Of a DNA stretch of 64,000 nucleotides, positions 1 through 22,351 are shown one piece after another (the stretch's first letter is position 1; each line of letters starts with the position of its first letter). The notes under the pieces were generated by a model, which was not told where the DNA came from, did not search any database, and saw nothing but the letters and a program-made list of their open reading frames with translations. The stretch lies in contig DATLGJ010000020.1 of NCBI GenBank assembly GCA_035540555.1, positions 58,759 to 122,758 on the forward strand. Reading direction: 5' to 3'. The stretch is from Candidatus Limnocylindrales bacterium. Lineage in GTDB: Bacteria > Chloroflexota > Limnocylindria > Limnocylindrales > CSP1-4. Position numbers and translations under genes: made by a program.

Positions 1-3000
1 CACGATCGATCCACCTGATCCATACGACTGCACTCGAAGTTGATCGGTCGCCGTCGATTCACTGCGCACGGCGGTGGGATCACTGACGCTGTACGTGACC
101 GTGTGGGAGAGCGCATTGTTGCCAGTGTCCCGGGGATCTGTCACGCGGTTCAGCAAGCTGCCCGACGCGTAGCTGAACTTGTGGCAGCCAGATGCCTGGC
201 CGCTTGCCGCGCAGGCGGCGCTTCGTCTTGCGGGTATCACGGTGACAAGGTTGTTGGACGCGTCTCGGGCGAAGTCCGTGTAGCGCCCCGTCGCGCCGCT
301 CAGCGCTTCGGTGAAGCGCACGGACGAGGTCCCATAAGTAACCTGCAACTGCCTAGTCGCTGTGCCGCTCGCGAGCGGCTCGCCGTCAGAGGCCGCCCGA
401 ACCGTTGCCAAGCTGATGGTCTGCGCCGAATAGTCATAAGTCCACGTGAGTCGGGTCGAGTTCCCGCTTGGGTCAGTCGAGAGCGTCATGACACCGTCGC
501 GGTTGAAGAAGCGTCGCGCTCCACCACGCTCGGTGAGTTCGAAGTCGTCAGCAACGGTCGCCGCGTACGAGGCGCCAAGGTTGGTCAGGGAGCGAAGTTG
601 GGAGGTGTCGAACAGCGCGTAGTTCCCGTCGCGCGCGATCAGGCGGAGGCCGGTCAGGTGGACAGGATCCGCAATCGGCCCCGCCCCCGGTGTCTCGGAA
701 TTGCCTCCCTCGGCATCGTTGTAGTAGCCCAGTACCTGGCGTGCGTCGTCGAGCAGGTTGCGCGTAACGACCATCCACTCCGTTGGAGCAGTCGGTGAGA
801 TCTGCAGTTGATTGGTGTACGTTCCGGGCGCAAGTGCGGGGCCGGCATAGTAGGTGATGGTCGACGAGGCGTTAGTGCGCGCGTTCTTGACGTGGAATGC
901 GAAAGCGACATGGTCGCCGCCGACCTTCTTCCATGCCCATGAAACGAACGGATGAACGATCAGGTTGTCATTTCTGCAGGCCACACAGTTAGGACTCGCA
1001 GCTTCGGATGCGGGCAGCACCTTGATTGCGCCGGTGCCGGCGTGCCGATCGGTGGTGCTCAGCGACGAGTTACCGGCATTCGCCGTCCAAGCCAAGTTGG
1101 CGTCGTTGATGATGTCGGCCTTGGTCCCCTCGAAGCGGATGGCGTCGAACTGGAGATTTCCGCTCTCCGTAGTCCCCCAGAACTTCATCGCCGTGATGCT
1201 GAAGTTGTCGTTAACGGTTCCTATCGCCTGGCTGACGGCATCGGCTCGGATGTCCCGCCCTTGAATGTGGCGCCAACTTGTGATAGACCCGCCCAGCGCG
1301 ACCTTCTTGGTCACGCCGGAGATCGCAAAATCGGTGCCCAGCGTATATGCGAGCCAGGTACTTGCGCCCGTCGTCTCGTTGACGATCTGGAAGCCGATTG
1401 CGCCCCTCGTCGCGCTGCCGGTACGGATGACAGCGAATGATCCGAGCGGGTAGTGGTCAAGGTCAATCTTCGGAAAAGCACCCGTTGATGCGCCGGTCGC
1501 ATTGTTGGCGGCGATCTGGTACACGCGCCCTCCGCTGAAGGCGGTACCGCTCGCGATCAGTGACGCCGTGCCGCTCCATCCGGTGAGCCAGTTCTCGTCG
1601 AAGATCGTGTGGCGGACCCGCTCGAGACGAACGGGGGCTGCGCTGATCAGCTGGCCACTCGGTGCGGCCGCTACCAGGTATCGATTGCCGTCCGCGTCCA
1701 CATAGATGTAGTCAGCACCCTCGACGCCCGCGCCGGAGCGGAATCCTTCGTCGAAGTTGGTCCCCCATCCGCAAGCGCGGAGAATTCCGGTGCAATCGGT
1801 GCGGTTGGCGCTGTCGTAGTAGTAGGCCAGTGACAGCAGCCCTCCGCGATCGGAGAAGCCCACGCCCCCGGCCCCGTCAAAGCGCAGGTTGCGCGACCAC
1901 AGGTTTATACCGAGCGACGATCCGTCTGGCAGCTCGACGCTGCTCGTGTCGCCGATCGCGGTACCCCCGCCCGAGACAACCGACACGCCGAAGTCGGCTC
2001 GTTCGACGACCGAAGCCCCGACCCATCGGGTGTTCGAGTCGTCAAGGCTGTACTTCTTGCGAGCGTAATAGGCGCTTGGCTTGGCCCAGTCAGATCCCCA
2101 GAGGTTGGTCCCTCCCCTGACATGGACCAGGTCGAGGCGCAATCCGAACTGGCCAACGACGGGCGGGGCATCCACTGCGACGTTGAAGATGCTGCTCGTG
2201 GCACCTGAGTTGATCGCGGTCGGCAGGTTGACTACCTTCCAACTGGTGAATCCGGAGATGGCCAGCGGGCGGCCTGCCGCGTCAAGCCAACGGTACCCAA
2301 AGGCGTAGTAGTCGTTGGGGTTGGCTCCCGACAGATTGAACGTGAAGCCAGCGTCATTGCGCACACGCACCGGTAGTGATGTGCTCTTACCAGCGACCAT
2401 CGTCGTCGGAACGAAGTTGTCGCCAAGAGCGGGATCGAAGTCGATGCCCGCGGCGGGCACCACATAACTGACAGACAGACGCGGCCGCCGGTCCAGGTTG
2501 TCGGCCCTCTGACTCGCGTACCGAACTTCGTTCTGCGACTCGGTCTGCTGTCGCACGCGAATGCCGAAGTTGGGCTGCCAGCTGGCGCGACTGCGGGTAT
2601 ACCAGCTTCGGACCATGCTGGTCACGTCTTGGGTGAGATAGCCAGACGATGCGAACACCGTGACCGGAGTGGTAGCTGATCCGGACAGAACCGACGGCTG
2701 GTTGTTCCATGTCGCTTGCATGTTCCAGCCGCTGCTGACCTGTTCGAAGTAGACCTTCTGGGTTCCGTTGCCCCAGTTGTTGTTCTGGTAGAGCTGGAGC
2801 GACGCGTCGGTAACCTGAGCGCCGTCTTCCAGGGCGAGATTCGGGAAATAGAGGAGTCCGCGCATGACGCCATAGCTCCCGCCGTCGCCGCTATCGGCGT
2901 CGGTGCCGACCCGGATTCGGTTCCAACCGGTCTGCCAGCTGTTCGGCATGCCACTCAGGACGAAGTGGTCGAGAATGTCGCCTGCGGTGTAAACGCTGCT

Positions 3001-4296
3001 GCAGCCGGTGGGCGTACCCGTCTGCCCATACTGGAGGCAGATCGTCGGATCGAGCACGACCGGATACACGCGGGCCGGATCCGCCAGCCAAGCCGGATCG
3101 ATCGTGTAGGTCAGCACGATCTCGTCGGGCCCCAGGCGGCCATCGGTCAAGTCCGGCGCCGTCGGATCCGTCGGTGATGGGGACTCAGGCGCCGCGGTGT
3201 CGAGCGGAAGGTCTGTCGGCTCTGGCTCAGTCGGTTGGGTAGTCGCGTCAGCCGCCGGGGTCTCGACCGGCGCGGTCGCGTCCGGCGCAATCGTCGGCTC
3301 CGCCGGAAGCGTCGGACCGGGCAGGATGGGCGCCAGGGTCTCGACGGTAGGGGTGGCCAGGACCGGCGACGGGGTAGGCAGGGGCGGTCGCGGCGCTGGG
3401 TCGATGCGCGTACTCAGTGTGGTGGTAACCGCTGTCTCTGGGGCGAAGCTGTCTATCGCATCGATGGCCCATGGAGGACTGACCGTTCCGGCGATCTCGC
3501 CATCGGCGTTGCGTAGCAGCACGCCGCGACCGTCAGGCGCGACCTCGGCACGCAGACCACCGGTATCGAGGATGAACTGGTAACTGTTAGCCAAGCCGGG
3601 CTCAGCCAGCGTGACGGAAAAGGCCAGCCCTTCGGGAACCGGGATTAGCGAGACTTCGCCGCTGCCCGGGCGGGCCGGGATGCGGACTTGGTCTGGCAGG
3701 GTTATCGGAGCCAGCACACCCCGGTCGACTTGGCGTAGACGAAGGGTGCCATGAGGACTCCGTATCTCTGCGAGCCGGTCGGTGTTCCCCTTGGACGAGA
3801 GGCTCACTCCGACATCGTTGGCCCGTGTCCTTTTGCCGTACTCCCCGGCCTCGTCAGTCAGGCTCAGGTCGATGGGTTGCCACTTACCTTCGCTGTCCAG
3901 GTAGTTGATGCGACCCATAAAGAATTCGGCGGTGTGGGTTCCGTCGGGCCCCACGACTACCCTGCTGTAGGCGGTCCGAAGGGCTTCATCTTCTGTCGCT
4001 GCGCGCGGCAGAGCGTCTACGCTCCGCGGCGAGCGAAGCTCTGCCCCGAGACTTGGCAGGTACCCGCGTTCACCGCCGATGACTTCAATAGGCGCGGGCG
4101 AGCGCTCAAGGAACAAAGGCACCGAGTTCTCGATGGCGGGAACGCGGGGGTCCGAGGCCGCAGCATCATCGTCTTGAAGCACGGCTATCGCAGCCGGGAC
4201 GGGTGGGCCAAGCACTGAGAGAGCGAGGACGAGCGCCAGGAGACTGGACCGCGCTCGGCCATGGCGAGCGCGCTGACTCGGAAATTGGAAGTGCAT
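1..4296 (-). CDS. Large secreted RHS/YD-repeat (WapA-like) protein, N-terminal 1432 codons. The gene runs off the window start, so the C-terminus and any toxin/immunity module lie outside.
   Basis: Manual reverse-complement translation shows an uninterrupted frame from ATG at 4296 to position 1 (codon starts are multiples of 3). No listed ORF on either strand explains the region. The N-terminus has a signal-peptide-like sequence (MHFQFPSQRARHGRARSSLLALVLALSVLGPPVPAAIA). A Pro/Thr-rich linker sits near 3200-3450. The distal part contains YD/RHS-like repeats (LTWTYDYSAQ, RVTDPRDTGN...TVTYS). The ORF track omits it because the stop is outside the window. Confidence 0.6.
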   Translation of the reverse strand, partial: MHFQFPSQRARHGRARSSLLALVLALSVLGPPVPAAIAVLQDDDAAASDPRVPAIENSVPLFLERSPAPIEVIGGERGYLPSLGAELRSPRSVDALPRAATEDEALRTAYSRVVVGPDGTHTAEFFMGRINYLDSEGKWQPIDLSLTDEAGEYGKRTRANDVGVSLSSKGNTDRLAEIRSPHGTLRLRQVDRGVLAPITLPDQVRIPARPGSGEVSLIPVPEGLAFSVTLAEPGLANSYQFILDTGGLRAEVAPDGRGVLLRNADGEIAGTVSPPWAIDAIDSFAPETAVTTTLSTRIDPAPRPPLPTPSPVLATPTVETLAPILPGPTLPAEPTIAPDATAPVETPAADATTQPTEPEPTDLPLDTAAPESPSPTDPTAPDLTDGRLGPDEIVLTYTIDPAWLADPARVYPVVLDPTICLQYGQTGTPTGCSSVYTAGDILDHFVLSGMPNSWQTGWNRIRVGTDADSGDGGSYGVMRGLLYFPNLALEDGAQVTDASLQLYQNNNWGNGTQKVYFEQVSSGWNMQATWNNQPSVLSGSATTPVTVFASSGYLTQDVTSMVRSWYTRSRASWQPNFGIRVRQQTESQNEVRYASQRADNLDRRPRLSVSYVVPAAGIDFDPALGDNFVPTTMVAGKSTSLPVRVRNDAGFTFNLSGANPNDYYAFGYRWLDAAGRPLAISGFTSWKVVNLPTAINSGATSSIFNVAVDAPPVVGQFGLRLDLVHVRGGTNLWGSDWAKPSAYYARKKYSLDDSNTRWVGASVVERADFGVSVVSGGGTAIGDTSSVELPDGSSLGINLWSRNLRFDGAGGVGFSDRGGLLSLAYYYDSANRTDCTGILRACGWGTNFDEGFRSGAGVEGADYIYVDADGNRYLVAAAPSGQLISAAPVRLERVRHTIFDENWLTGWSGTASLIASGTAFSGGRVYQIAANNATGASTGAFPKIDLDHYPLGSFAVIRTGSATRGAIGFQIVNETTGASTWLAYTLGTDFAISGVTKKVALGGSITSWRHIQGRDIRADAVSQAIGTVNDNFSITAMKFWGTTESGNLQFDAIRFEGTKADIINDANLAWTANAGNSSLSTTDRHAGTGAIKVLPASEAASPNCVACRNDNLIVHPFVSWAWKKVGGDHVAFAFHVKNARTNASSTITYYAGPALAPGTYTNQLQISPTAPTEWMVVTRNLLDDARQVLGYYNDAEGGNSETPGAGPIADPVHLTGLRLIARDGNYALFDTSQLRSLTNLGASYAATVADDFELTERGGARRFFNRDGVMTLSTDPSGNSTRLTWTYDYSAQTISLATVRAASDGEPLASGTATRQLQVTYGTSSVRFTEALSGATGRYTDFARDASNNLVTVIPARRSAACAASGQASGCHKFSYASGSLLNRVTDPRDTGNNALSHTVTYSVSDPTAVRSESTATDQLRVQSYGSGGSIV

Positions 4297-4599
4297 GTCG
4301 CTCCCTCGCACCTCGGCGCAGGCAGCACCGAGCCCCTAGCCCCCACGAATCAGCGTGCCGCCCCTCGGGCACGACGCGACGGTGGGGCCCCGCGCGGGCT
4401 GCCGCAAGCAGGGAGAACCCTATGTTCCGTCGGGGGTTTCGCCTTGAGCCCCGGCCGCTCGCGCGCTTGGGGCCGGCGTTCCTAGAAGCCTCTGGCTGCC
4501 GGCCGGCCTCTGGCGCAGTACCGCACCGGCGGCGGTTGCTCGGTTGGACTTCGCGCTCCGGCCCTGACCTGGCACCGCCTTCAACCGCCGGCCCCTACC

Positions 4600-4860
4600 T
4601 TATCGTTCAGGCGGCTCTTCGTTCGGATCCAACGCTGACAAGGGCACGCCGTACAACTTCGCGAGAAGGATAGCTTCGGCGAAGAGCAGCGACCGCCGGC
4701 CTGTTTCCAACTTGCCGATCCAGCTCTGCGGCTTGCCCACGCGCTGCGAGACCTGGACTTGGGTCAGGCCGGCCCGGCGGCGCAGTTGCGCCAGTCGGTC
4801 TGCGAGTGCCGTTCGGTCGGCAGCACTCTCAGGTGGCGGGCTGACCCGCGGCCGATTCAT
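4600..4860 (-). CDS. XRE-family helix-turn-helix transcriptional regulator (86 aa), divergent from the FtsH-like gene
   Basis: HTH_3-type motif LRRRAGLTQVQVSQRVGKPQSWIGKLETGRRSLLFAEAILLAKLYGV. A 190-bp divergent intergenic region separates it from the gene starting at 5051. Confidence 0.75.
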   Translation of the reverse strand: MNRPRVSPPPESAADRTALADRLAQLRRRAGLTQVQVSQRVGKPQSWIGKLETGRRSLLFAEAILLAKLYGVPLSALDPNEEPPER

Positions 4861-5050
4861 GGCTCACATGGTGATGCCCACATCGAAGCGCCGCACCGCA
4901 CTTTGGCGCACACCGGGGGCCAGTCGCTCACTCGCCGACAACGGCGCGCGTCACCCCTCGTGTCCGCCTTGGAGCCCGCCCTTGACAGCGCCTGCGGCTC
5001 TAGGATAGCGTCGACCGCCGTTATCCCGAATCCGAATAGGAGGCGTCAAG

Positions 5051-6484
5051 GTGAGTGCCGACAAGTCACGGCCGGACGAGATAGATCAGCTCCTGGCCGA
5101 TGCGCTGTACCAGGGACCGAGCGTCACTGCCGACCAGCTGGTAGGTGTCGATGCCTGTCTGCGCCAACTGGCCGGTCAGCTGACGCTGCTTGAGCGACCC
5201 GAGCTAGGCGTGCGACTTGGCATCCAACCATCTGGTTCGCTGTTTCTCGGCCCGCCCGGCACGGGCAAGACATTGCTCGCGCGGTTTCTGGCCGGGCAAC
5301 TGGGCGTTCCTATGTACCAACTGAGCGCCGATCAGTTCGGCGATGATCCGGCTCAACTTCATCGCATCTTCGGGCGCCTGAGCCGCCAGCGCGCCGTTCT
5401 CTTCATCGACGAGATCTCCATCCTCTGCCAGCGTCGCGACTGGTCGAGCGCCGAGGAGAGGCGCATGCTCGCAGCCCTGCTGACCGAGCTTGATGGACTT
5501 TCCAGCCTTGCGGCAGGAGAGCGCCTTTGGGTCATCGGGGCGTGTACGCCCGATATCCACCTCGATCCTGCCATTCATCGCTCGGGTCGCCTGGGGGTAA
5601 CGGTCGAGTTCGCCCTGCCGTCGGTGGAACATCGAGCCCAGTTGCTGCGCCTGTATCTGGCGGCTGTTCCGAACGCGCTGTCGGAAGAGGACATTGCCAG
5701 GCTAGCCGAGATGTCAGGCGGGGTCAGCGGGGCCGATGTTCGTGACTACATCAACCAGGCGGCCAGCCTGGTCCTGGCTGAGGCGGTGGATGTGGCCGAT
5801 CCTGTCATCGAGTATCGACACCTCGAGATCGTCTTCGGCCGGCGTGGATTCGTTGCCGCCGAGGGCCGGCCGGGACGCGAGCCGGACTGGGAGACTGCGG
5901 TCCACGAGGCCGGCCATGCCGTCATCGCATATGTCCTGTTTGGCCGCCCTGCGCTTGCGCAAGTCACGATCGGCTTTGGCCCGGTCGGCCGGCGTCGTAT
6001 GCCGACGAGAGGCCACTTCTCCGTATCGGATGATTGGGCCGAGAAGAACCACCCGACGTCGCTCAGCTGGAGCGACCATGTAGCGGTCAAGCTCGCCGGG
6101 GTCTGTGCCGAGGAACTGATTCTCGGTTACCGCGGCTCGGGCGCCTCGAGCGACATCGCTGCTGCCACCTCGCTCATCCTCGACCAGTTCGATCAAGGCG
6201 ACCCCTCATTCGGCCCCTCCCGGACCGAGATGGAGGGCGGCCCGGGCGCACGCATCGGGGGGGCCGGCTCCGAAGCCATGCGCGCCACCGCGTGGCATCT
6301 GGTCCGATCGCGATTTGGAGAATGCTGGTCCCGAACAGGCAGCTTGGTGAGCGAGCACAGATATGCCATCGAGCGGCTGGCCTCCGCCTTGCTCGAGAGC
6401 AAGAGTCGCCTGACTGGCGACGAGATCGTCGAGGTGCTCGACACCGGCGTGGTCGCAACCGGCGCTTCTGGCGCGGCAGCGTAG
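5051..6484 (+). CDS. Soluble (transmembrane-less) FtsH-like AAA+ ATPase fused to an M41 zinc-metallopeptidase domain
   Basis: Walker A GPPGTGKT and Walker B LFIDEI. AAA second region of homology TPDIHLDPAIHRSGRLG. HEAGHAV (HEXXH) plus downstream GASSDI motif typical of FtsH peptidase M41. The N-terminus has no hydrophobic TM segment. GGAGG RBS 7 nt before the GTG start. Confidence 0.8.
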   Translation: MSADKSRPDEIDQLLADALYQGPSVTADQLVGVDACLRQLAGQLTLLERPELGVRLGIQPSGSLFLGPPGTGKTLLARFLAGQLGVPMYQLSADQFGDDPAQLHRIFGRLSRQRAVLFIDEISILCQRRDWSSAEERRMLAALLTELDGLSSLAAGERLWVIGACTPDIHLDPAIHRSGRLGVTVEFALPSVEHRAQLLRLYLAAVPNALSEEDIARLAEMSGGVSGADVRDYINQAASLVLAEAVDVADPVIEYRHLEIVFGRRGFVAAEGRPGREPDWETAVHEAGHAVIAYVLFGRPALAQVTIGFGPVGRRRMPTRGHFSVSDDWAEKNHPTSLSWSDHVAVKLAGVCAEELILGYRGSGASSDIAAATSLILDQFDQGDPSFGPSRTEMEGGPGARIGGAGSEAMRATAWHLVRSRFGECWSRTGSLVSEHRYAIERLASALLESKSRLTGDEIVEVLDTGVVATGASGAAA

Positions 6485-6670
6485 GCTGCCGCGATCTCTC
6501 GCCGGCTCCACAGTCCTGTACCTGGAGAGGCGTCACGAGAGAGGCGCACAGCGAATCGCGAAAGGGGGTTGACTCCCCTAAAGACCTGCCTACAGAAGGC
6601 CCCGACGCCGTTGGATCGGTCGGGATCGACCCGCACCGCCAGCGGCTCGCAAGGCTTTAGGAGGTAGAGA

Positions 6671-9430
6671 TTGCTGACCGAGCGAGGCTTTGAGCTCTGG
6701 GGCGCGAGGCTGCAACTCGCGGACCCCGTGCGTCGGCTGATCGCTGACGTCCGGAGCGCTCCCCCAGCGCGCCGAGTCGGCAGCCGTCGGCGCAATGTCT
6801 CGGGCCGCTACCCAAGCCGCAAGATGGGGCTGACCATCCAGTTCGAGTCGCACACCAGTGAGTTGGTGGGCATCTACTCCTACGAACATGACTCGCGTGT
6901 GGTCGAGTACTACGACCAACCCGCCCTCAGCGCGAAGCTCAACTATGTGCGAGGAGACGGGCGACGCGTCAGCTACGCCGTAACGCCCGATTTCCTCGTT
7001 CTTGAGCGCGACGGCGCTTTCCTCGACGAGTGGAAGACGGAGACAGAGCTGGTCCGGCTTGCGGCCAAAGATCCCGCGTTGTACACCAAGGAGGATGGCG
7101 CTTGGCGCTCGCCTCCGCGAGAGGAGGCAACTGAGCGGCTAGGCCTCAGTTTCCGGCTGCGGACGCGCGACAGCGTCGGCGACATCCTCGACCGCAATCT
7201 GCGGTTTCTTGATGACTACTTGCGTGCCGCGGTTGAGCCGGACCCAGCGCTCGCAGCCGCACTGACCGAGGCGGTCAGCACGGATCCCGGGATCAGCGCC
7301 GGGGAACTGTTGAGCGCGCTCATGCGCGAGGGTGCCGCCGATTGTCTATACGCGCTCATCGCCGGTGGGCAGCTATTCGTAGATCTGGCGACACAGCCGC
7401 TGGCTGAGCCATTCCATGCCGCGGTCTATCCGAGTGCCGAGCTGGCCGCGTCCCTGAGGAGTCCGGAACAACCAATCGGCACGTTGGTGCAACTGACGTC
7501 CGGCACCAGGCTGGAATGGGATGGTCGGCCGTGGGACGTGGTAAACCCGGGACCCGAAGGCGTAAGCCTTCGCGATGCGGCCGGTCAGCTGGTCACCCTC
7601 GACAACCACGAGTTCCAGTCACGGCTGCAAAACGCCAGCATCCGAGAGCTACCGCATTCTCAGGCCGAGGCGCTGCCGCCGGAAGGCGCGGCGCTGCTGC
7701 GGGCAGCCAGTCCTAAAGACCTTGACCTGGCAAATCAACGCTATCGCCAGATCGTCAGTCCGAATGACGACGAGAGCGCTCTGTCACCGCGTTCGCTCGC
7801 GCGCCTGCGCAGAAGCTACCGCGAAGCGCAGTTGCGGTACGGGTGCGGCTTCATCGGGCTGCTGCCCCAGCCCAGAAAGGGCAACAAGACTCGGAAGCGC
7901 GAGGCCCAGGTACTAGGTGTGATCGAAGAGCAGATCAGCACGTTCTATAGAAGCAAAGACGCGCCGGGAAAGACCGCGCTCTACGGGCTGGTCGTGGAGC
8001 ATTGTCAGCGCCTCGGCTTGGAGCCGCCCTCGTACAAGACCGTCAGCAAGGCTCTGCACGCTCATGACGCTCATACCGTCCAAGGTGATCGAGAGGGCCA
8101 GAAGGTCGCCTACGGCAGCGAGCAGTTCTACTGGCACCTCGACGCGAGCACACCTCGCCATGGTGACCGGCCCTGGGAAATCGGCCACGCGGACCACACT
8201 AAGCTGGACATCGAGCTGGTCTGCTCAAAGACGGGCACAAACCTCGGTCGTCCATGGCTATCACTGCTCGTCGACGCTCACAGTCGCCGCGTCCTGGCCT
8301 TCTGGCTGACGTTTGACCCGCCGAGCTATCGCTCGCTGATGATGCTCGTGCGGCGCTGCGTTGCGCTACACAGCCGCCTGCCCGAGACCATCGTCGTTGA
8401 TGGCGGTGCAGAGTTCGGCAGCATCTACTTCGAAACCTTGCTGGCCGCTTTCGAGATCACCAAGAAGGTGCGCCCTGGCGCTCCGCGGTTCGGCTCGGTC
8501 TGCGAGCGCCTCTTTGGCATGGCCGACGAGCGCCTGATCCACAACCTGCGCGGGAATACCAAGCTCATGCGCAACGTGCGCACCGTCACCGCCGAGGTGA
8601 CCCCAAGCAAGCGGGCGGTATGGGATCTGTGGTCACTCGACAACGCGCTCGGCGAGTGGTTTCACGAGGTCTACGACGGCCTCGATCATCCCAGCCTTGG
8701 GCAGAGCCCTCGCGATACCTACAACGCGCGCATCGAGCTCAGCGGCACACGCCCGCAGCGCTGGGTCGCCGACGACGAAACCTTTCGCATGCTGACCCTT
8801 CCGAGCACCCAGAAGGGCACAGTCAAAGTAGATCCTTCCCGCGGCGTTAAGGTCAACTACATCAACTACTGGAACCCGCGCTTTCGCGATCCCGCTCTCG
8901 GGCGCCGCGACCTTCCTGTCCGCTATGACCCGATCGATGTCCGCCACGCATTCGTCTTCGCCGATGGCGACTGGATCGAGTGCGAGTCGCAAGAGCTGCG
9001 TTCGCTGCCCCAGATCTCGGAACGCGAGTTGCGCTTCGCCACCGCCGAATTACTCCAGCGCAGACGCAATGTCGAGCGCCGTCGACCGTTGACTGCTCGG
9101 GACATAGCGGTCTTCCTAAAGCAGCAGAAGGACAACGAGAACTTGCTCCTTTTGCGATTGCGCGACTTCGCGCAACGCGAGGTGTTGGCTCCGCACCGTG
9201 CCAATCAGCTTCTTGGGTGGGGCGCGCCAGCGCCGTTTGAAGCCGATGCCATGGCACCGCCGACGGCGCTGGAGGTGGTCGACCAGCCAGATGCAGCAGC
9301 GTCCTCAGAGCCGCCCGAGCAAGAGATATCGGCTTCCGTGGTGATCGCGGGGGAGACCAACGACCATCACGAGCCCCAAGACAGTCAGGCAGTGTTCGGT
9401 GAGTACACCCTCCTGATGGAGCTCAGCTGA
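6671..9430 (+). CDS. tnsAB: Tn7-like transposase, a TnsA-like endonuclease domain fused to TnsB (DDE, Mu/rve-type) = TnsAB
   Basis: The N-terminal ~190 aa carry PD-(D/E)xK TnsA motifs (ESHTSELVGIYSYEHD...QP...YAVTPDFLVLERDGAFLDEWKTE; compare Tn7 TnsA TDFLV/QVK). The rest has a Mu-type DDE core (HADHTKLDIELV ... TIVVDGGAEFGS ... SVCERLFG). TTG start with AGGAGG RBS. The stop abuts the tnsC start at 9432. Confidence 0.8.
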   Translation: MLTERGFELWGARLQLADPVRRLIADVRSAPPARRVGSRRRNVSGRYPSRKMGLTIQFESHTSELVGIYSYEHDSRVVEYYDQPALSAKLNYVRGDGRRVSYAVTPDFLVLERDGAFLDEWKTETELVRLAAKDPALYTKEDGAWRSPPREEATERLGLSFRLRTRDSVGDILDRNLRFLDDYLRAAVEPDPALAAALTEAVSTDPGISAGELLSALMREGAADCLYALIAGGQLFVDLATQPLAEPFHAAVYPSAELAASLRSPEQPIGTLVQLTSGTRLEWDGRPWDVVNPGPEGVSLRDAAGQLVTLDNHEFQSRLQNASIRELPHSQAEALPPEGAALLRAASPKDLDLANQRYRQIVSPNDDESALSPRSLARLRRSYREAQLRYGCGFIGLLPQPRKGNKTRKREAQVLGVIEEQISTFYRSKDAPGKTALYGLVVEHCQRLGLEPPSYKTVSKALHAHDAHTVQGDREGQKVAYGSEQFYWHLDASTPRHGDRPWEIGHADHTKLDIELVCSKTGTNLGRPWLSLLVDAHSRRVLAFWLTFDPPSYRSLMMLVRRCVALHSRLPETIVVDGGAEFGSIYFETLLAAFEITKKVRPGAPRFGSVCERLFGMADERLIHNLRGNTKLMRNVRTVTAEVTPSKRAVWDLWSLDNALGEWFHEVYDGLDHPSLGQSPRDTYNARIELSGTRPQRWVADDETFRMLTLPSTQKGTVKVDPSRGVKVNYINYWNPRFRDPALGRRDLPVRYDPIDVRHAFVFADGDWIECESQELRSLPQISERELRFATAELLQRRRNVERRRPLTARDIAVFLKQQKDNENLLLLRLRDFAQREVLAPHRANQLLGWGAPAPFEADAMAPPTALEVVDQPDAAASSEPPEQEISASVVIAGETNDHHEPQDSQAVFGEYTLLMELS

Positions 9431-9431
9431 C

Positions 9432-10520
9432 ATGGACGCAGATCAGCGGCGCGAGGCGCTCTCAGGCTTTAAGCGGTATGTCGTGGCCCACCCCAACCTG
9501 GTCGATACCGTAGCAACAGTGAATGGCTCCATCATGGAGCCGGCGGGTGCCGCGGTGACGATGCTCTACGGTCCGACCGGTGTGGGCAAGAGCACGGTCG
9601 TCCGGGCGGTCATGACCGAGGCGAACCGCGAGCTCATGCCTGAACTTGCCGCCGATCCAGGCAAGTTCGGTGTCATCAAGCTCGATGCTCCCGCGCCGAC
9701 AGGCGGGAGTTTCAGCTGGAAACAGTTCTTCATCAAGTTGCTCGTGGCTCTTGGTGAGCCGATCGCGGATGCGCGCCTCGAGCGCCCCGGAAGAGCGGTT
9801 GGCCAGCGGCTCCGCAGCGGCGAAGAAGCGCGCAGTCAGGCCGAGCAGGCATTGGCACAGCGGCGGCCGAAAGCTGTGCTGATCGACGAGGCAACGCATA
9901 TCGCCAACTTGGTGTCGGGTGAGCGGCTCCTCAACCAGCTCGACCTATTGAAGTCGCTGGCCGACAGCACGGGCACTCACTTCGTGCTCGTCGGTACATA
10001 CGACCTGCTTGCCTTTCGCAACCTGAGCGGTCAGCTCGGCCGGCGAACTCAGGACGTGCACTTTCAGCGTTACCTGCCGAACGAAGGGGATATGGGCAAG
10101 TTCCAAACGGTCGTCCGCTCCTTCGGCCGAGCGCTCCCGGTCGACGCGGTCGACCTGACCGAGCATTTCGAGTTTCTGTATGAACGTTCACTTGGCTGCG
10201 TCGGCATGCTGCGCGACTGGCTGACACGGGCACTCAACAGTGCCCTGGCCCTCGAACGGCCGTTCCTCTCCGCGGACCTGCTTCGCGCCAATGCCTTGCC
10301 CATGGGAGCGCTCATGGCCGCCGCAGAAGAGATCAGCTACGGCGAGGCAAAGCTGGCCGACGCTGAGCGCGACCAGTTGCGCCTGCGCGAACTGCTCGGC
10401 ATCGCTCCATCCCAGGGAGCGGCAGCTCTCGAGCCCGCAGCGCCCCGCCTCCGCGCCGGCGTCACTGGCCGCGTCGGCACGCGCCAGCCAAGCCGCGATC
10501 CTGTCGGCGTCGAGACATGA
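9432..10520 (+). CDS. tnsC: TnsC-like AAA+ transposition regulator
   Basis: Walker A GPTGVGKST and Walker B VLIDEAT. It occupies the TnsC/TniB position between the transposase and tniQ. Its stop overlaps the tniQ start (ATGA). Confidence 0.75.
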   Translation: MDADQRREALSGFKRYVVAHPNLVDTVATVNGSIMEPAGAAVTMLYGPTGVGKSTVVRAVMTEANRELMPELAADPGKFGVIKLDAPAPTGGSFSWKQFFIKLLVALGEPIADARLERPGRAVGQRLRSGEEARSQAEQALAQRRPKAVLIDEATHIANLVSGERLLNQLDLLKSLADSTGTHFVLVGTYDLLAFRNLSGQLGRRTQDVHFQRYLPNEGDMGKFQTVVRSFGRALPVDAVDLTEHFEFLYERSLGCVGMLRDWLTRALNSALALERPFLSADLLRANALPMGALMAAAEEISYGEAKLADAERDQLRLRELLGIAPSQGAAALEPAAPRLRAGVTGRVGTRQPSRDPVGVET

Positions 10521-11851
10521 ATGAGCAGTTCGCATTGGTCGCCGATCAGTCCGTGTTAGGACCGCGAAGCCGCCTTCATCGCTTGGAGCCTCAAGGTCTG
10601 GGCACTCCTGGTGTCGAGGCGATGACCAGCTACCTGCTCCGGCTGGCCGCAAGCCATGCGTTACCCGTGGGAAGCCTGGCCGTGGATCTGGTCGGGCCGG
10701 AACTCGGGCGCACTCGCGTCTATGGCGAGGCGCGCACCGATCGCTCCAGCTTCTTCAACTCCTCCATTTACCGAGGGCCGCAGGCCATCAACGGAGTTGG
10801 CGATTACGGCGAATTGTGGCTGGGAGCGATTCAGCGCTTGGTGCTGCGCGATGACCTAGCGCCCTTGAGCATGGTGTCCTGGCGAAGAGCGCTTTCGGCC
10901 CGCGGTCTACTGCGCGATCACTTGGCAGCGTGCGCCCATTGCCTGCACGAAGCAGCGGTCGCGGGGCGGACGATCCATGAGCCCCTGCTCTGGTCAATCG
11001 CGCAGGTGACCACGTGTCCGCTGCACGGTTGCCAGCTTCTACAGAGCTGTCCGCACTGCGCGACGCGCTCGCCACTCTTGGGCTGGGACGCCCAGGTGGG
11101 TCATTGCCGGCGATGTGGCAGCTGGCTAGGAAGCAGCATCTGTGACGAACAGCCTGGGAGCGAATGGGAGAGCTGGATATCGGCCAGCGTTGGCCGACTT
11201 CTTGAGTTGCCGCTCGAGCGACGGATCGCTGGCGGAACAATGGCTCGAGCCATCACGCAGGCGGTAGCCCGCAGCACCAATGGCAACGCTGCCGCCTTTG
11301 CCCGCGCGATCGGGCGCTCCAAGAGCCTGGTGACCGAATGGCGCCAGGGCCGAGCCGCGCCAACGCTCGAGTCACTGCTTCGCATCGCGGCATACGCGCG
11401 CCTGGACTTTGTGGCACTCGTGCGTGGCTCAGCCGTCGCTGACCCGGAGCCGCCGGCCCGATCGACATTGGGCGCCTGGGCCAGGGAAGTTAAGAGCGCG
11501 CGCGACTGGGGCGTGGTCGAGAGCCAACTGGAAGCGGCCCTAGCACTCGATCCACCGCAATCCTTCGCGGCGCTGTGTAGAGATTTACGCCTTGATGCTC
11601 AATCTGTTCGCGAGCGCTTTCCCGCTCTGGCGGGCCAGCTTGTGTCAAGGCGCCGCCGGTGGTCAGAGCATCAGAGGAACGAGCGATGCGAGGTGTTAGC
11701 CGGAGCGGTCCACGCGGCCGTCGTGGCAATCTGCGAGGTCGGCGAGCATCCCAGTCGTCGACGGGTCGAGGCGCTTCTTCCGACCGGCGCATCTCTTCGC
11801 GAGGACGCTCTTCGCACCGCCTGGCGCGAGTCGATCGCCACTCATCAGTAG
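10517..11851 (+). CDS. tniQ: TniQ/TnsD-family target-site selector
   Basis: N-terminal TniQ-like motif TSYLLRLAASHALPVGSLAV. Cys/His zinc-finger cluster (CAHCLHE...CPLHGC...CPHCATR...CRRCG). C-terminal XRE-like HTH (ARAIGRSKSLVTEWRQGRAAPTLESLLRIAAYARL). Confidence 0.7.
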   Translation: MNEQFALVADQSVLGPRSRLHRLEPQGLGTPGVEAMTSYLLRLAASHALPVGSLAVDLVGPELGRTRVYGEARTDRSSFFNSSIYRGPQAINGVGDYGELWLGAIQRLVLRDDLAPLSMVSWRRALSARGLLRDHLAACAHCLHEAAVAGRTIHEPLLWSIAQVTTCPLHGCQLLQSCPHCATRSPLLGWDAQVGHCRRCGSWLGSSICDEQPGSEWESWISASVGRLLELPLERRIAGGTMARAITQAVARSTNGNAAAFARAIGRSKSLVTEWRQGRAAPTLESLLRIAAYARLDFVALVRGSAVADPEPPARSTLGAWAREVKSARDWGVVESQLEAALALDPPQSFAALCRDLRLDAQSVRERFPALAGQLVSRRRRWSEHQRNERCEVLAGAVHAAVVAICEVGEHPSRRRVEALLPTGASLREDALRTAWRESIATHQ

Positions 11852-11949
11852 GGGGCGTCGCTGTCTCTCAGCTGCAAACACGCTAACCCGGTCCGCGCCC
11901 AATGCCGCTCCAGCACTGGTTGGTCAACAACAGAGGCCATGCTGGTTAT

Positions 11950-12312
11950 CTAGATCGCATAGTTGCGATACGACCCCCGTCCGTAGTCGTAAAGCGAGAT
12001 GCTGGAACCCGAGACCGTCCCAGAGAAGTGCGACGAAGTGCCGTAGTCGTAGCCCTCAAACCGATCCCCGGCGATCTTGAGTGCAACGTGATGACCGCGG
12101 CCGTAGTGGTACAGACTCAGGTTAGGCCGACTGCCTGACCCGCCGAAGTAGCATCCCGTGTCGTAGTCGTAGACGTTGACGGTTGTGGACGTCACTTCGC
12201 CGCTGATGCTGCGGTATTGGCCGAGGTCGTAGTCGTACACGGCGCTGGCAACCTTGCCTGTGATCAGTCGGGCAGCGACGTAGCCGACGAGGGCCGCAAC
12301 GTCATCGTGCAT
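11950..12312 (-). CDS. Small hypothetical protein (120 aa) built from five ~20-aa tandem repeats with an aromatic Y-D/H-Y-D/G core
   Basis: Sequence ...VYDYDLGQYRSISGEVTSTT / VNVYDYDTGCYFGGSGSRPN / LSLYHYGRGHHVALKIAGDR / FEGYDYGTSSHFSGTVSGSS / ISLYDYGRGSYRNYAI. Composition is not Arg/Ala-spurious. GGAG about 12 nt upstream of the ATG. It is the last gene before the transposon end and is transcribed inward from that end. Confidence 0.45.
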   Translation of the reverse strand: MHDDVAALVGYVAARLITGKVASAVYDYDLGQYRSISGEVTSTTVNVYDYDTGCYFGGSGSRPNLSLYHYGRGHHVALKIAGDRFEGYDYGTSSHFSGTVSGSSISLYDYGRGSYRNYAI

Positions 12313-12413
12313 CGTGACTCACATCTCCAAGCGACGTGCCGTATGCGCGAGCGTAGCAATGCCGCGGGATGGCGCGTCATAGGCGGGCTTAACACATGGC
12401 CGCGCCGGCTCGC

Positions 12414-12609
12414 TGGAAGCTTGGGCCGGCCGGACGTCCATCGGATCAGCTCGCGCCGAACGTGAGCCGGCGAGGTTCAGACGAGCGCCTCCAGTGGAAG
12501 CATCAGCTGGCACTTTGTCAGAACCGGTCGATTCTGAGCGTGACTACTTGCGTCGTCGCGAAAGTGGAAGCATGTGCTGTCCGTTGTCGACTGGAAGCAT
12601 GAGCTGTCC
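12414..12609 (+). repeat. Four direct repeats of a ~18-bp core TGGAAGCAT(C/G)(A/T)GCTG(G/T)CC, putative TnsB-binding sites of the transposon end. Copies at 12414 (degenerate), 12495, 12565 and 12592.
   Basis: Found by reading directly: ccagTGGAAGCATCAGCTGGCac (12495-12513), aaagTGGAAGCATGTGCTGTCC (12565-12582), gacTGGAAGCATGAGCTGTCC (12592-12609), gcTGGAAGCttgggcc (12414-). All point the same way toward the terminus. This is a gene-free, lower-GC segment. Confidence 0.55.
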
Positions 12610-12665
12610 AAAAGTGCCAACTTATGGTTCCAATCACAGGCCCGCCGAGGGCGTGCGCAAGATCG

Positions 12666-13039
12666 TGGTGGAGATGGGGGAGGGTCGAACTCCCCGTCCA
12701 AGGCGTTCAGCCGGAGACCAGCTACGAGCGTAGTCGATGCTTTGTCGTCAATCGGTCAGGCCGCCATCGACAGCGTCCCGCCCGATCCATCCACGCTCCC
12801 TTGCGGGCTTTGCGATCAGTCACGTGGCCTCGCCGATCGCGCATCCCCGCTGATTGACGCTTCCACAGCCCGCGGGGATGAGGCTGCTTCCACGTTCACC
12901 TAGCTGCTGTTAGGCAGCGAGGGGAAGAGAAGTCTGGCGGTTGCCAGTTACTTCGTTTTGCCGCCTTTTTCCGAGGCCAGAGCGGCATCCTCGACTCGCG
13001 TTCTCCGGGGATCCGGCCCTGTCGAAACCACTCATCCCC
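12666..13039 (-). ncRNA. ssrA: tmRNA (transfer-messenger RNA), 374 nt
   Basis: Minus-strand 5' end GGGGATGAGTGGTTTCGACAGGG (compare E. coli GGGGCUGAUUCUGGAUUCGACGGG). 3' end GGACGGGGAGTTCGACCCTCCCCCATCTCCACCA with T-arm GGGGAG/TTCGACC/CTCCCC. The acceptor CATCTCC pairs with 5' GGGGATG, including a G3-U wobble. Internal ...GGCCTCGGAAAAAGGCGGCAAAACGAAGTAACT GGC AAC CGC CAG ACT TCT CTT CCC CTC GCT GCC TAA gives a predicted tag GNRQTSLPLAA. smpB is immediately upstream. Confidence 0.7.
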
Positions 13040-13134
13040 AGACCACTAATCCTAGCATCCGAACGCCTGTTCTGGAAAGGGGTTCCGGGGAATGAGGGAG
13101 TGGACGCATCTGGCCCTGTGGTGGCGCGGCTCGC

Positions 13135-13596
13135 TCAGCGCCCGCGCTGGGCGTCGGCCATCTCGCGCTCGACCTCGCGGCGCATGTCCCGCTCCGCGAT
13201 GGAGCGTCTTTTGTCGTGGAGCTGCTTTCCGCGTGCGAGCCCCAGCTCCAGCTTGGCGCGTCCCCTGTCATTGATGTAGAGCCTCAGGGGCACGACCGTC
13301 AGACCCTTGGCCGACGCACGGCCGAGCAACTGGTCAATCTCGGCACGGTGGAGCAGCAACTTGCGATCCCGGCGCGGCTCGTGGTTCCACCGATTGCCGG
13401 CTTCGTACGGCGCGATGTGGGCGCCGATAAGCCACGCCTCGCCCTTCTCCACGCGGGCGTAGGCATCAGCCAGGTTGGCCTTGCCCGCTCGAATGCTCTT
13501 GATCTCCGTGCCGGTCAGGACGATGCCGGCCTCGAAGGTGTCGCTGATCTGGTACTCATGGCGGGCTCTGCGGTTGACCGCCACCGTCTCGGACAT
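13135..13596 (-). CDS. smpB: SsrA-binding protein SmpB
   Basis: [17 protein letters not shown]...[13 protein letters not shown]...[20 protein letters not shown]. Start taken at the internal Met; the track ORF extends 28 codons further upstream. Confidence 0.85.
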
Positions 13597-13827
13597 TCTG
13601 TGCTGCTCCTGCCGTCCTGCGCCGGATCGGGGAAATGGCGCCGGACGCGGTGACGCCGGCCCTTTGTGGGCCGGCGTCACATGGCTGCGTTCACCACTTC
13701 TCAGGCGTCAGCTCAGGCGAGCGTCCCCCGAGAGGCGGTGCAGCGAGAACTGTCTGACACTGCACATCACCTCCTTTCGTTCGAAGGGACGATACCCGAC
13801 CTGCAGTCATTGCGCAAGGAGCGGTGC

Positions 13828-15171
13828 TCAGGCGGCGCGGGCCAGCCGGTGCAACGGATGCTCGGCCTCCTCCAGCGCGGCTCGCAGCAGCTCGATCGCC
13901 TGGTCGAGCACCGGATCCTGGCCGGCAGGGGTGCCCTCGGGCACCTCGACGACGAGGTCTGGCGTTAGCCCCTCCCCGTGGATCCACGTCTGGTCCGGGG
14001 TAAGCCACTTGCGAACGGAGAGGCGGTATCCGCCGGCACCCTCGAGCTCCTTCCACTCCTGGATGGTGCCCTTGCCGTACGTCCGCTGCCCGACCAGCTG
14101 CGCTCGCCCGCTGCCCTGCAGGGAGCCCGCCACGATCTCGCTGGCCGACGCCGTGCCGCCGTTGACCAGGACCACGAGCGGGATTGAAGGATCCGTCGCG
14201 GCGCCCCCGGGGATGGGCTCGATGGCCAGCGGTTCACTGCGCGCGCCCTGCTCCCAATACAGCGGGCTGGTGGCGACGAATTCGCTGGCTATGCGCCGCG
14301 CCGCATCGACGTAGCCGCCCGGGTCGTCGCGCAGGTCCAGGATCAGCGCCCGAACGCGGTGCTCCTCGACCAGCTCACGCAGCAGATCGTGCAGGTCCTG
14401 GGCCGCACCCGAGCTGAAGTTCTCGACCTTGAGATAGCCGATCGCGCCGTCGGCCAGGACGTCGCTCCGCACGTGCTCGCTCTGGATCACGTCTCGCACG
14501 ATGCGCAGCTCGAGCGGGTCCCCCGCGCGGTCGATCGACAGCGTCACCGACGTGCCCTTGGTGCCGCGAATGAGTGGAATCACCACGTCCAGGCTCGAGT
14601 CAAGCGTGGAGCGCCCATCCACGGCCAGGATGACGTCGTCCACCTGCAGGCCGGCGGCCAGCGCGGGCGATCGTCGAAGCACGCGCGTGACGGTGAGCCG
14701 GCAGCTGTGGGTGATGGTCGTGCAGGCATTCCCATCGGGCTCCCGCGTGGCCATCTCGGCGCCGATGCCTTCGAACTCGCCCGACAAATGACTCAGGCTG
14801 CCGCGGTACTCATCGGAGGTCATGTACCCCGAGAACGGGTCGCCGAGCGCCTGGAAGACGCCCTGAATGGCCCCCTCCACCAGGCGGCGCTCGTCGATCT
14901 CGCCTACATAGCTGTGGGTGATGTCGTTATAGGCGTCCCAGAAGGGCTGGAACAGCTCCTGCCGCGATTCACCGGTACCGGCCGTGGTTCCCTGAAGCTG
15001 GCCAAGCGCGAAGCCCGATACGAACAGCCCGCTGCCGGCGATGATCGCGACGAGGGCAGCGGCCACGTAGACCGCCGCTCGGCCAGGCCCTTCGCGGCGG
15101 TCGCGCTCGCCCGACGGGTCGACTCCATCGGTCGATAGGTGCCGGTCAGGCGTGGGATGGGGTTCCTGCAT
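13828..15171 (-). CDS. ctpA: Carboxy-terminal processing protease (S41, PDZ domain)
   Basis: N-terminal membrane anchor, PDZ region, catalytic-Ser motif VLVNGGTASASEIV and TYGKGTIQ. Confidence 0.8.
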   Translation of the reverse strand: MQEPHPTPDRHLSTDGVDPSGERDRREGPGRAAVYVAAALVAIIAGSGLFVSGFALGQLQGTTAGTGESRQELFQPFWDAYNDITHSYVGEIDERRLVEGAIQGVFQALGDPFSGYMTSDEYRGSLSHLSGEFEGIGAEMATREPDGNACTTITHSCRLTVTRVLRRSPALAAGLQVDDVILAVDGRSTLDSSLDVVIPLIRGTKGTSVTLSIDRAGDPLELRIVRDVIQSEHVRSDVLADGAIGYLKVENFSSGAAQDLHDLLRELVEEHRVRALILDLRDDPGGYVDAARRIASEFVATSPLYWEQGARSEPLAIEPIPGGAATDPSIPLVVLVNGGTASASEIVAGSLQGSGRAQLVGQRTYGKGTIQEWKELEGAGGYRLSVRKWLTPDQTWIHGEGLTPDLVVEVPEGTPAGQDPVLDQAIELLRAALEEAEHPLHRLARAA

Positions 15172-15253: not shown

Positions 15254-16358
15254 TCAGGCTGCCTCGTCGGTAGCCAGGCGCTCCAGCTCCGCCAGCATGA
15301 AGCCGTCGAGGTCGCCGTCCAGGACGTCGCCCGTGCTGCTGGTTTCGTGCTCGGTGCGGTGGTCCTTGACCATCTGGTAGGGGTGCAGAACGTAGGAGCG
15401 GATCTGGTTGCCCCAACCGGCTTCGACGTGATCACCCTTGATCGCCGCCAGCTCTCGTTCGCGCTCCTCCAGCTTCCGTTCCAGCAGGCGGGCCCTGAGC
15501 ACCTTCATCGCAACGTCACGGTTCTGGTGCTGGGAGCGCTCGTTCTGGCTCTGCGCCACGATGCCCGTCGGCAGGTGCGTGATGCGGACCGCCGAGTCGG
15601 TCTTGTTGACGTGCTGTCCGCCCGCCCCCTGCGCTCGGAATGTGTCGACCTTGAGCTCGTCCTCCGGGATCTCGCCGACTTCGACGTCATCTTCGACCTC
15701 GGGCAGCACCTCGACCAGGGCGAACGTCGTATGGCGCCGCTTCTGGGAGTCGTACGGGCTGATCCGAACGAGGCGGTGAACGCCGCGCTCAGCGCGAAGG
15801 TGGCCGTAGGCGTTGCGTCCCTCGACGGCAAAGGTCGCGCTTTTCAGGCCCGCCTCCTCCCCCTCCAACTGGTCGAGGATCTCCGTGCCGAAGCGATGGC
15901 GTTCGGCCCAGCGCAGGTACATCCGCAGGAGCATGGCGGCCCAGTCGGTCGCCTCTGTGCCACCGGCCCCCGCGCTGATCGAGACGATCGCGCTGCGCTC
16001 GTCGTATGGCCCGTTGAACATCAGGCTCATGCGCTGGCGCTCAAACTCGGCGCGGAGCGCGACGTGCTCGGCCGAAAGGCCTGTCAGCATCTCCTGGTCG
16101 CCGGAATCGCCGGCCAGCTCTGCCAGCTCGACCAGATCGTCGGCGCGCTGCACCAGTGAGCGCCAGACCCCGATCTCCTCGCGCAGGCTCTCGGCCGTGC
16201 GCAGCACCTGCTGGGCGTTGCGTTGGTCCGACCAGAAATCGGCCGCGCTGGCCTGCTCGTCGAGGTCGGCCAGCCGCTCTTCGCGAGCAGCTAGGTCAAA
16301 GGCGCCCCGAGGTCGCGTGGATGCGCTCGGCCAGGGCGCGCAGCTCTCCTATATCCAA
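15254..16358 (-). CDS. prfB: Peptide chain release factor 2, requires a +1 programmed frameshift at CTT TGA C (16301-16295)
   Basis: Frame-0 leader from TTG at 16358 (RBS AGAGGAA) encodes (M)DIGELRALAERIHATSGRL then stop. The +1 frame continues DLAAREERLADLDEQASAADFWSDQRNAQQVLRTAESLREE... and includes GGQ. SD-like GGGG lies 3 nt upstream of CTT. Confidence 0.85.
16295..16308 (-). other. prfB autoregulatory +1 frameshift site (GGGG CGC CTT TGA C)
   Basis: Read directly from the reverse complement of 16295-16308. Matches the canonical RF2 recoding cassette. Confidence 0.8.
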
Positions 16359-22338: not shown

Positions 22339-22351
22339 GGCTCCGCTCCGC

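Follow-up and report, generated by a model that had tools for sequence, protein, structure and literature searches.

The tmRNA gene ssrA as the probable landing site of a Tn7-like transposon with fused TnsAB in Candidatus Limnocylindria (Chloroflexota)

The DNA described here is a stretch of 64,000 nucleotides (hereafter the window) from contig DATLGJ010000020.1 of a Candidatus Limnocylindrales bacterium (assembly GCA_035540555.1, positions 58,759 to 122,758). With a probability that we put at roughly 0.8, a Tn7-like transposon with fused TnsA and TnsB proteins (TnsAB) has inserted here by TnsD-guided homing, downstream of the transfer-messenger RNA (tmRNA) gene ssrA in a member of Candidatus Limnocylindria (Chloroflexota), and the window covers its target-proximal part. 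The transposition machinery is of a well-studied and structurally solved kind; the landing site and a conserved protease gene next to tnsAB look new. The visible part of the element covers 12.6 kb, and the element continues to the left, past position 1. Its GC content (64.4% for positions 1-12638) was lower than that of the remaining sequence (67.4%).

The core of the element is formed by three genes on the forward strand. They are tnsAB (6671-9430, 919 amino acids), in which a TnsA-type endonuclease domain is fused to a TnsB DDE transposase, tnsC (9432-10520, 362 amino acids), coding for an AAA+ regulator, and tnsD (10517-11851, 444 amino acids), coding for a target selector with a TniQ domain. 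A first-pass annotation, made from the letters alone, had described translationally coupled genes in precisely this interval, and the open reading frames (ORFs) were indeed found there, with a gap of 1 nt between tnsAB and tnsC and an overlap of 4 nt (ATGA) between tnsC and tnsD. The start codon of tnsAB is a TTG located 6 nt 3' of an AGGAGG sequence (6659-6664). This start was supported by an alignment of 37 full-length homologues, since residues 28-61 hold many family-invariant columns.

The profile searches suggested in the first-pass annotation yielded the expected domains, with the exception of rve. TnsAB matched the Pfam models Tn7_TnsA-like_N (PF08722, residues 74-136, 27.7 bits for a cut-off of 26.5) and Mu-transpos_C (residues 711-768, 25.8 bits for a cut-off of 21.7), and rve (residues 524-599) stayed below its cut-off (21.4 versus 32.6 bits). 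The TnsA hallmark announced for the N-terminal domain is present, with VTPDFLV at residues 104-110 and EWK at residues 120-122. In the alignment mentioned above, the TnsA catalytic residues E64, D107 and K122 were invariant, as were E59, E120 and the DDE triad D508, D577 and E612, where 35 residues separate D577 from E612 (DD35E spacing). We take E64 and K122 to be the equivalents of E63 and K132 in Tn7 TnsA. D107 corresponds to D106 of McCAST, and a D106A mutation of the latter converts transposition into cointegrate formation (PMC9881144). TnsC displayed AAA_22 (2.5e-18) and TniB (3e-08) domains, a Walker A motif GPTGVGKS at residues 47-54 and a Walker B motif at D152 and E153. In TnsD, the TniQ domain (residues 27-174, 53 bits, 6.5e-14) was accompanied by two Cys/His clusters (C139, C142, C167, H170 and C178, C181, C197, C200) as well as by a weak XRE-type helix-turn-helix (HTH) at residues 259-294 (HTH_3 0.013, below threshold) and a C-terminal region.

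Among Tn7-like transposons, the element belongs to the TnsAB-fusion clade, which it shares with type I-B2 and I-D CRISPR-associated transposons (CASTs) and with cyanobacterial tRNA-homing elements. Searches of PDB sequences matched all three proteins with those of PmcCAST: TnsAB residues 6-839 with its TnsAB (9BW1 chain M, E 1.6e-209), TnsC residues 7-361 with its TnsC (8FCU and 9BW1, E 5e-71) and TnsD residues 13-438 with its TnsD (8V32 and 9BW1, E 6e-54). These matches uphold the initial attribution to the Tn7 family, with a natural TnsA-TnsB fusion, a TnsC and a TnsD-type selector. A cryo-electron microscopy structure exists for the clade (9BW1). The small Cascade-coupling TniQ of PmcCAST aligned to TnsD residues 15-215 only, and similarity between TnsB of Tn7 and the TnsAB protein was marginal (E 0.32). 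An affiliation to the TniABQ(R) set of Tn5053/Tn402, already discarded in the first-pass annotation, can be excluded because the TnsA domain is present with invariant catalytic residues and the best solved relatives are CAST or Tn7-like proteins; moreover, no resolvase was found among the called genes.

Fused TnsAB proteins had been presented as rare, which was not confirmed. The homologue search returned 688 significant matches, and the best 120 of these were about 880-930 amino acids long and about 41-47% identical; the named sources among these 120 were Cyanobacteria, Chloroflexota and Acidobacteria. Cyanobacterial Tn7-like elements fall into three major branches, of which fused TnsAB is one (Hsieh and Peters 2022, PMC9881144), a branch that takes in all I-B2 and I-D CASTs together with many tRNA-homing elements, and tnsAB fusions were plotted across the TnsC tree by Faure et al. 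2023. The present element extends this clade into uncultured Limnocylindria, with compact TnsAB-TnsC-TnsD sets that display a defined RNA-gene target.

The left end of the transposon was located at 12492-12638 (forward strand). It is composed of three TnsB-type sites in direct orientation (TGGAAGCATNNGCTG core), located at 12492-12518, 12562-12588 and 12589-12615, with cores starting at 12495, 12565 and 12592, and of one inverted terminal site at 12609-12635 (core copy 12616-12632). The latter stands next to the terminus ...ATCACA, of which position 12638 is the last base. Left-end sites in both orientations are a trait of the clade, and it is the left end that adjoins the target (PMC9881144); position 12638 was identified as the left end since the inverted terminal site fits this published trait. 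Pattern and position weight matrix (PWM) scans found no comparable match to the four sites elsewhere in the 64 kb. A related element, located on a JGI metagenome contig (L001), displayed the same site spacing (70 and 27 nt) and the same inverted terminal site, and conservation between both left-end blocks was high, in contrast to the diverged spacer adjoining them. The first-pass annotation had delimited the transposon as 6671-12638. The right-hand limit coincides with the true left end, but position 6671 is only the start of tnsAB and not an element boundary: conserved genes of the element lie upstream of it, and the window does not contain the right end. Between the first two left-end sites, positions 12519-12561 were nearly identical in the window and L001 and include a hairpin-like CAGAACCGGTCGATTCTG. 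This stretch is not of the TnsB type; it might bind a host factor, act as a promoter or encode a small RNA.

The gene facing this left end is an intact ssrA (12666-13039, reverse strand), detected by ARAGORN and covering the full Rfam model RF00023 (122 bits). Its tRNA-like 3' end is turned towards the element, and the CCA end is separated from the terminus by a spacer of 27 bp (12639-12665), or 30 nt if counted from the discriminator base. The T-loop motif GGTCGAAC lies at 12683-12690, i.e. 45-52 bp from the element end. Comparable distances are known from tRNA-homing relatives, in which a conserved target motif occurs 40-50 bp from the left end (PMC11837452), and from CyCAST, which homes 30-33 nt beyond the tRNA gene (PMC9881144 and PMC10293859). 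The first five bp of the spacer, GGCCC (12639-12643), are expected by analogy to be one copy of the target-site duplication. Beyond ssrA comes the host gene smpB (13135-13680, reverse strand, Pfam SmpB 1.7e-61). In a scan of one genome per species, the closest relatives of its product occurred in metagenome-assembled genomes (MAGs) of Candidatus Limnocylindria (Chloroflexota). Genomic islands of another type are also found at ssrA, where tyrosine integrases recombine inside the 3' end of the gene and duplicate it. Such an integrase-type island was considered and rejected: no second ssrA 3' end was present in the window, which stops short of the far boundary of the element, no integrase was found among the called genes of the visible part, and ssrA itself is left untouched by an insertion 27 bp away from it.

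This landing site looks new for the Tn7 family. No mention of ssrA or tmRNA as an attachment site was found in the main text of Hsieh and Peters 2022 (PMC9881144), in Faure et al. 2023 with its supplementary files or in Benler et al. 2021 with its supplement. Within the limited literature covered, the other papers naming both tmRNA and Tn7-like elements did not report an ssrA attachment site either, as far as their accessible parts show.

Further occupied sites were recovered in other genomes. The L001 element resembles that of the window (TnsAB 68%, TnsC 70% and TnsD 55% identical) and displayed the same 27-bp offset from its ssrA (22017-22387). A complete MAG chromosome (L026, ssrA at 10513-10884) carries the HTH gene, the AAA+/M41 protease gene described below, and TnsAB, TnsC and TnsD at 40%, 40% and 32% identity. 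The sites at its end are of another type, with a TGAGAC core and an inverted terminal copy, and this end starts with TGTG exactly 27 bp past CCA. The closest host (L017, ssrA at 11097-11468) contains a diverged left-end-like sequence, again 27 bp from ssrA, with an HTH gene about 770 bp further on and no tns genes between them, and resembles an internally deleted derivative. A fifth case (L100) was found on a 210-kb contig of a lower-GC bacterium, in which SmpB is 63% identical to that of the window and smpB stands beside ribosomal and rpoA genes. It combines a TnsAB (45%), a TnsC and an intact TnsD of 461 amino acids with an end composed of two direct sites and one inverted terminal site, 28 bp away from the tmRNA gene (15353-15709). 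The window shares its spacer length of 27 bp with L001, L017 and L026, and the spacer of L100 is one bp longer (28 bp); spacer sequence was not conserved. These four additional tmRNA genes scored 135-194 bits with RF00023. ARAGORN gave no tmRNA in L001, and blastn or Rfam were needed for L017, L026 and L100, a caveat for screens based on ssrA adjacency. A genome scan with TnsD alone retrieved no relatives, and SmpB was used as query instead.

Empty sites were recorded as well. The first-pass annotation had called for a comparison with related genomes having an empty ssrA locus, and about 14 other Limnocylindria MAGs carried no tns genes after ssrA and shared a common downstream gene set; none of those genes was seen in the window, L001 or L026. 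The association with ssrA is real. Taken at the level of sequence, the fixed offset of 27-28 bp at five independent occupied sites, together with the empty relatives, indicates that the tRNA-like end of ssrA is probably reached by TnsD-guided homing. On this interpretation, ssrA would join tRNA genes, glmS and others as an attachment site of the Tn7 family, used by at least five divergent elements in at least two clearly different bacterial lineages, and the ssrA elements would be natural examples of TnsD retargeting within the tRNA-like fold.

The following course of events is proposed by analogy. TnsD would bind ssrA DNA at the tRNA-like 3' end (T-arm and acceptor region) and recruit the TnsC ATPase, which would in turn position and activate end-bound TnsAB. 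Insertion would then take place at the fixed distance of 27-28 bp beyond CCA, with the left end oriented towards ssrA, leaving this essential RNA gene intact. The intact TnsA catalytic residues lead us to predict cut-and-paste movement. T-arm binding, the TnsC bridge, the 5-bp duplication and the cut-and-paste mode are all inferred from homology with PmcCAST and McCAST.

Several observations nevertheless weigh against TnsD-guided homing by a complete, mobile element. Mobility and TnsD-ssrA binding are predictions from sequence comparison. The TnsD proteins associated with ssrA share only about 30% identity and form no obvious single clade. PmcCAST TnsAB is reported to yield cointegrates in Escherichia coli despite its TnsA domain (PMC9881144), so that cut-and-paste movement is not guaranteed. 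Finally, no right end was found. A right end would be expected to show inverted TGGAAGCAT-type sites (TGGAAGCATNAGCTGGC-type in forward-strand form), with a TGT terminus and the GGCCC duplication. The whole window was scanned with exact and degenerate patterns and with the PWM, and the intergenic stretches 4297-4599, 4861-5050 and 6485-6670 were read directly, all with negative results; no right end was detected in the 10 kb that precede tnsAB in L001 or within 9.5 kb in L026. Either the element exceeds 12.6 kb and its right end lies outside the window, or this end was lost.

The second possibility would make the element a stranded fossil, arisen from the same homing insertion and deprived of autonomous movement after deletion or rearrangement of its right end. 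The PWM scan is effective, since it detected right-end clusters just upstream of tnsAB in another Chloroflexota element (L099) and within about 1.5 kb in L104, so that the lack of such sites throughout the window speaks for a loss. L017, with its left-end-like sequence, its HTH gene and its missing tns genes, looks like what an internal deletion would leave behind. On the other hand, the three tns ORFs are intact and have kept their catalytic residues, and the left-end block is far better conserved than the spacer between the window and L001, which suggests continued selection. Moreover, the window, L001 and L026 all lack a nearby right end, and a shared long architecture fits this better than three independent losses. 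A fossil appears unlikely to us.

The position next to ssrA might also reflect common descent of the hosts, following a single ancient insertion that was inherited vertically. That the window, L001, L017 and L026 all belong to Limnocylindria and display the identical 27-bp offset agrees with such a scenario. Occupancy is patchy, however: L018 and L027, whose ssrA genes are 88% identical, are empty, whereas L026, at 85%, is occupied. In addition, TnsAB of L026 is only 40% identical for a SmpB identity of about 80%, TnsB-site sequences are completely different between elements, and the lower-GC bacterium of L100, which has other neighbour genes and a SmpB identity of only 63%, also carries an element, at 28 bp. 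Patchy occupancy, elements that diverged more than their hosts and co-varied sites thus favour repeated site-specific homing, and vertical inheritance is very improbable.

In agreement with the first-pass annotation, neither cas genes nor a CRISPR array accompany TniQ in the visible 12.6 kb, where no integrase and no second tniQ occurred among the called genes either; no tandem or CRISPR-like array was detected in positions 1-14000. A CAST whose cas genes and array would lie left of the window, with TnsD serving for homing only, is the least probable alternative, even though the closest solved relatives come from a type I-B2 CAST and the element continues past the window, since the second small TniQ that I-B2 and I-D CASTs possess is lacking beside tnsC and tnsD, and neither cas genes nor a repeat array were observed here, in the stretch of about 22 kb that precedes the left end in L001, or in the 9.5 kb covered in L026.

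Directly upstream of tnsAB, and in the same orientation, lies a gene (5051-6484) for a soluble FtsH-like AAA+ ATPase/M41 metalloprotease that has no membrane anchor. It matched Pfam AAA (1.2e-23) and Peptidase_M41 (3.7e-13) as well as the NCBIfam FtsH model from position 158 of that model on, and displayed a Walker A motif at residues 67-74, DEI at 120 and HEAGH at 285. Its AAA part resembles the IetA defence ATPase in PADLOC. Co-directional genes combining AAA and M41 domains were found upstream of tnsAB in L001 (7941-9497, 67% identity), L026 (16474-18186, 55%), L101 (609-2003, 35%) and L103 (8062-9528, 30%). In L026, the protease is better conserved (55%) than TnsAB (40%). On a rough neighbour-joining tree, M41-bearing elements occupied deep branches outside the cluster holding the cyanobacterial sequences. 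The protease gene is preceded by a divergent gene (4600-4860, reverse strand) for an XRE-family HTH regulator (Pfam HTH_31 1.6e-14, HTH_3 6.7e-11), with homologues at the same position in L001 (71%) and L026 (46%); in L101 and L103, a divergent HTH_17 gene stands upstream of the AAA+/M41 gene. No RNA gene was found on the L101 and L103 contigs.

Since an FtsH-like gene recurs beside tnsAB in five elements that are divergent, it may have an accessory function. By analogy, two roles are conceivable. The protease might unfold and remove a very stable post-transposition TnsAB complex, much as ClpX removes the transposase complex of phage Mu. It might also degrade the XRE repressor and thereby switch on the tns genes, comparable to ImmA/ImmR-type switches. 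That it is a dedicated fourth transposon component rather than cargo, so that these elements, with their ssrA homing, would form a distinct and deep-branching lineage of Tn7-like transposons encoding their own module for remodelling or induction, is a tentative proposal that we consider rather doubtful.

Further upstream, positions 1-4296 (reverse strand) hold the N-terminal 1432 codons of an RHS/YD-repeat toxin gene, with an ATG at 4296 and a frame open to base 1. The full gene on a matching ENA contig (L002) codes for a giant, secreted protein of 3691 amino acids with RHS_repeat, TEN_YD-shell and PT-HINT domains. A search with its N-terminus gave as nearest relatives Chloroflexota 'DNRLRE domain' proteins (50% identity). 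The gene is probably cargo of the element; its C-terminal toxin domain falls outside the window, as would any immunity gene. Cargo upstream of tnsAB was also considered as a norm for these transposons and dropped, since right ends adjoin tnsAB in L099 and L104. Between tnsD and the left end, a small ORF of 120 amino acids (11950-12312, reverse strand) with repeated YDYD motifs was called as a gene in three assemblies. It matched no Pfam family, DUF5334 being sub-threshold only, and is minor cargo. In L001, 6.8 kb of unrelated cargo occupy the place of this ORF.

Other loci deserve mention. Two Chloroflexota TnsAB elements adjoin protein-coding genes, namely guaA in L097 (15816-15826), which has a TniQ protein of 847 amino acids, and dnaN in L099 (15267-15343). 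The latter element is minimal, at about 5.6 kb, and both its ends can be seen, although the 5-6 bp flanking it match only imperfectly. L101 displayed an 89-bp direct repeat (7281-7369 and 11738-11826, 90% identical), so that two blocks resembling a left end follow tnsD at a distance of 4.4 kb from each other. One attachment site may thus have received tandem or nested insertions; the target itself is not reached by the contig. A metagenome scan with a 19-mer from the terminal site found 11 loci with similar sites and no tns genes, tRNA or tmRNA; it recovered neither the source contig nor that of L001. In L007, L009, L010, L012 (4340-4658) and L013, a cluster of facing TnsB-like sites of about 320 bp was observed with no tns genes nearby, which may be a miniature non-autonomous relative.

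Among known systems, PmcCAST (type I-B2, from a Peltigera membranacea cyanobiont) is the closest one at the protein level. Its TnsAB fusion, TnsC and TnsD of about 450 amino acids can be aligned over nearly their full length, and it also homes downstream of a tRNA-type gene. It differs by its target, tRNA-Val instead of tmRNA, and by its cyanobacterial rather than Chloroflexota host. Moreover, neither Cascade genes nor a CRISPR array nor a second, small TniQ were seen here, where an FtsH-like gene precedes tnsAB. The type I-D McCAST and the tRNA-homing TnsAB elements, including minimal Tn5469 (PMC9881144), share the TnsAB fusion with its active-site aspartate, a left end oriented towards the target, left-end sites in both orientations and insertion about 30 bp past an RNA gene. 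In contrast to these, the present element is attached to ssrA, contains one TniQ-family gene and does not display its right end beside tnsAB.

The Tn7-like family that targets CRISPR arrays (PMC11837452) possesses the same TnsAB, TnsC and TnsD core, and illustrates how TnsD of this clade is retargeted to other sequences having in common a tRNA-like motif at 40-50 bp from the left end. Its TnsD proteins lack the C-terminal HTH region and its elements carry no cargo, whereas TnsD of the window aligns with that of PmcCAST through to the C-terminus. Like integrase-type ssrA islands, the transposon uses the tmRNA gene as a safe and conserved landing site (Williams 2002, as cited in PMC11837452). 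Prototypic Tn7 (TnsABCDE, attTn7 by glmS) is more distant: its TnsA and TnsB are separate, it targets a protein-coding gene, towards which its right end is turned, and it possesses a TnsE pathway. Yet both systems have in common TnsA and TnsB chemistry, a TnsC bridge and a TnsD that recognises, or here would recognise, a conserved essential gene and directs insertion to a fixed distance downstream of it.

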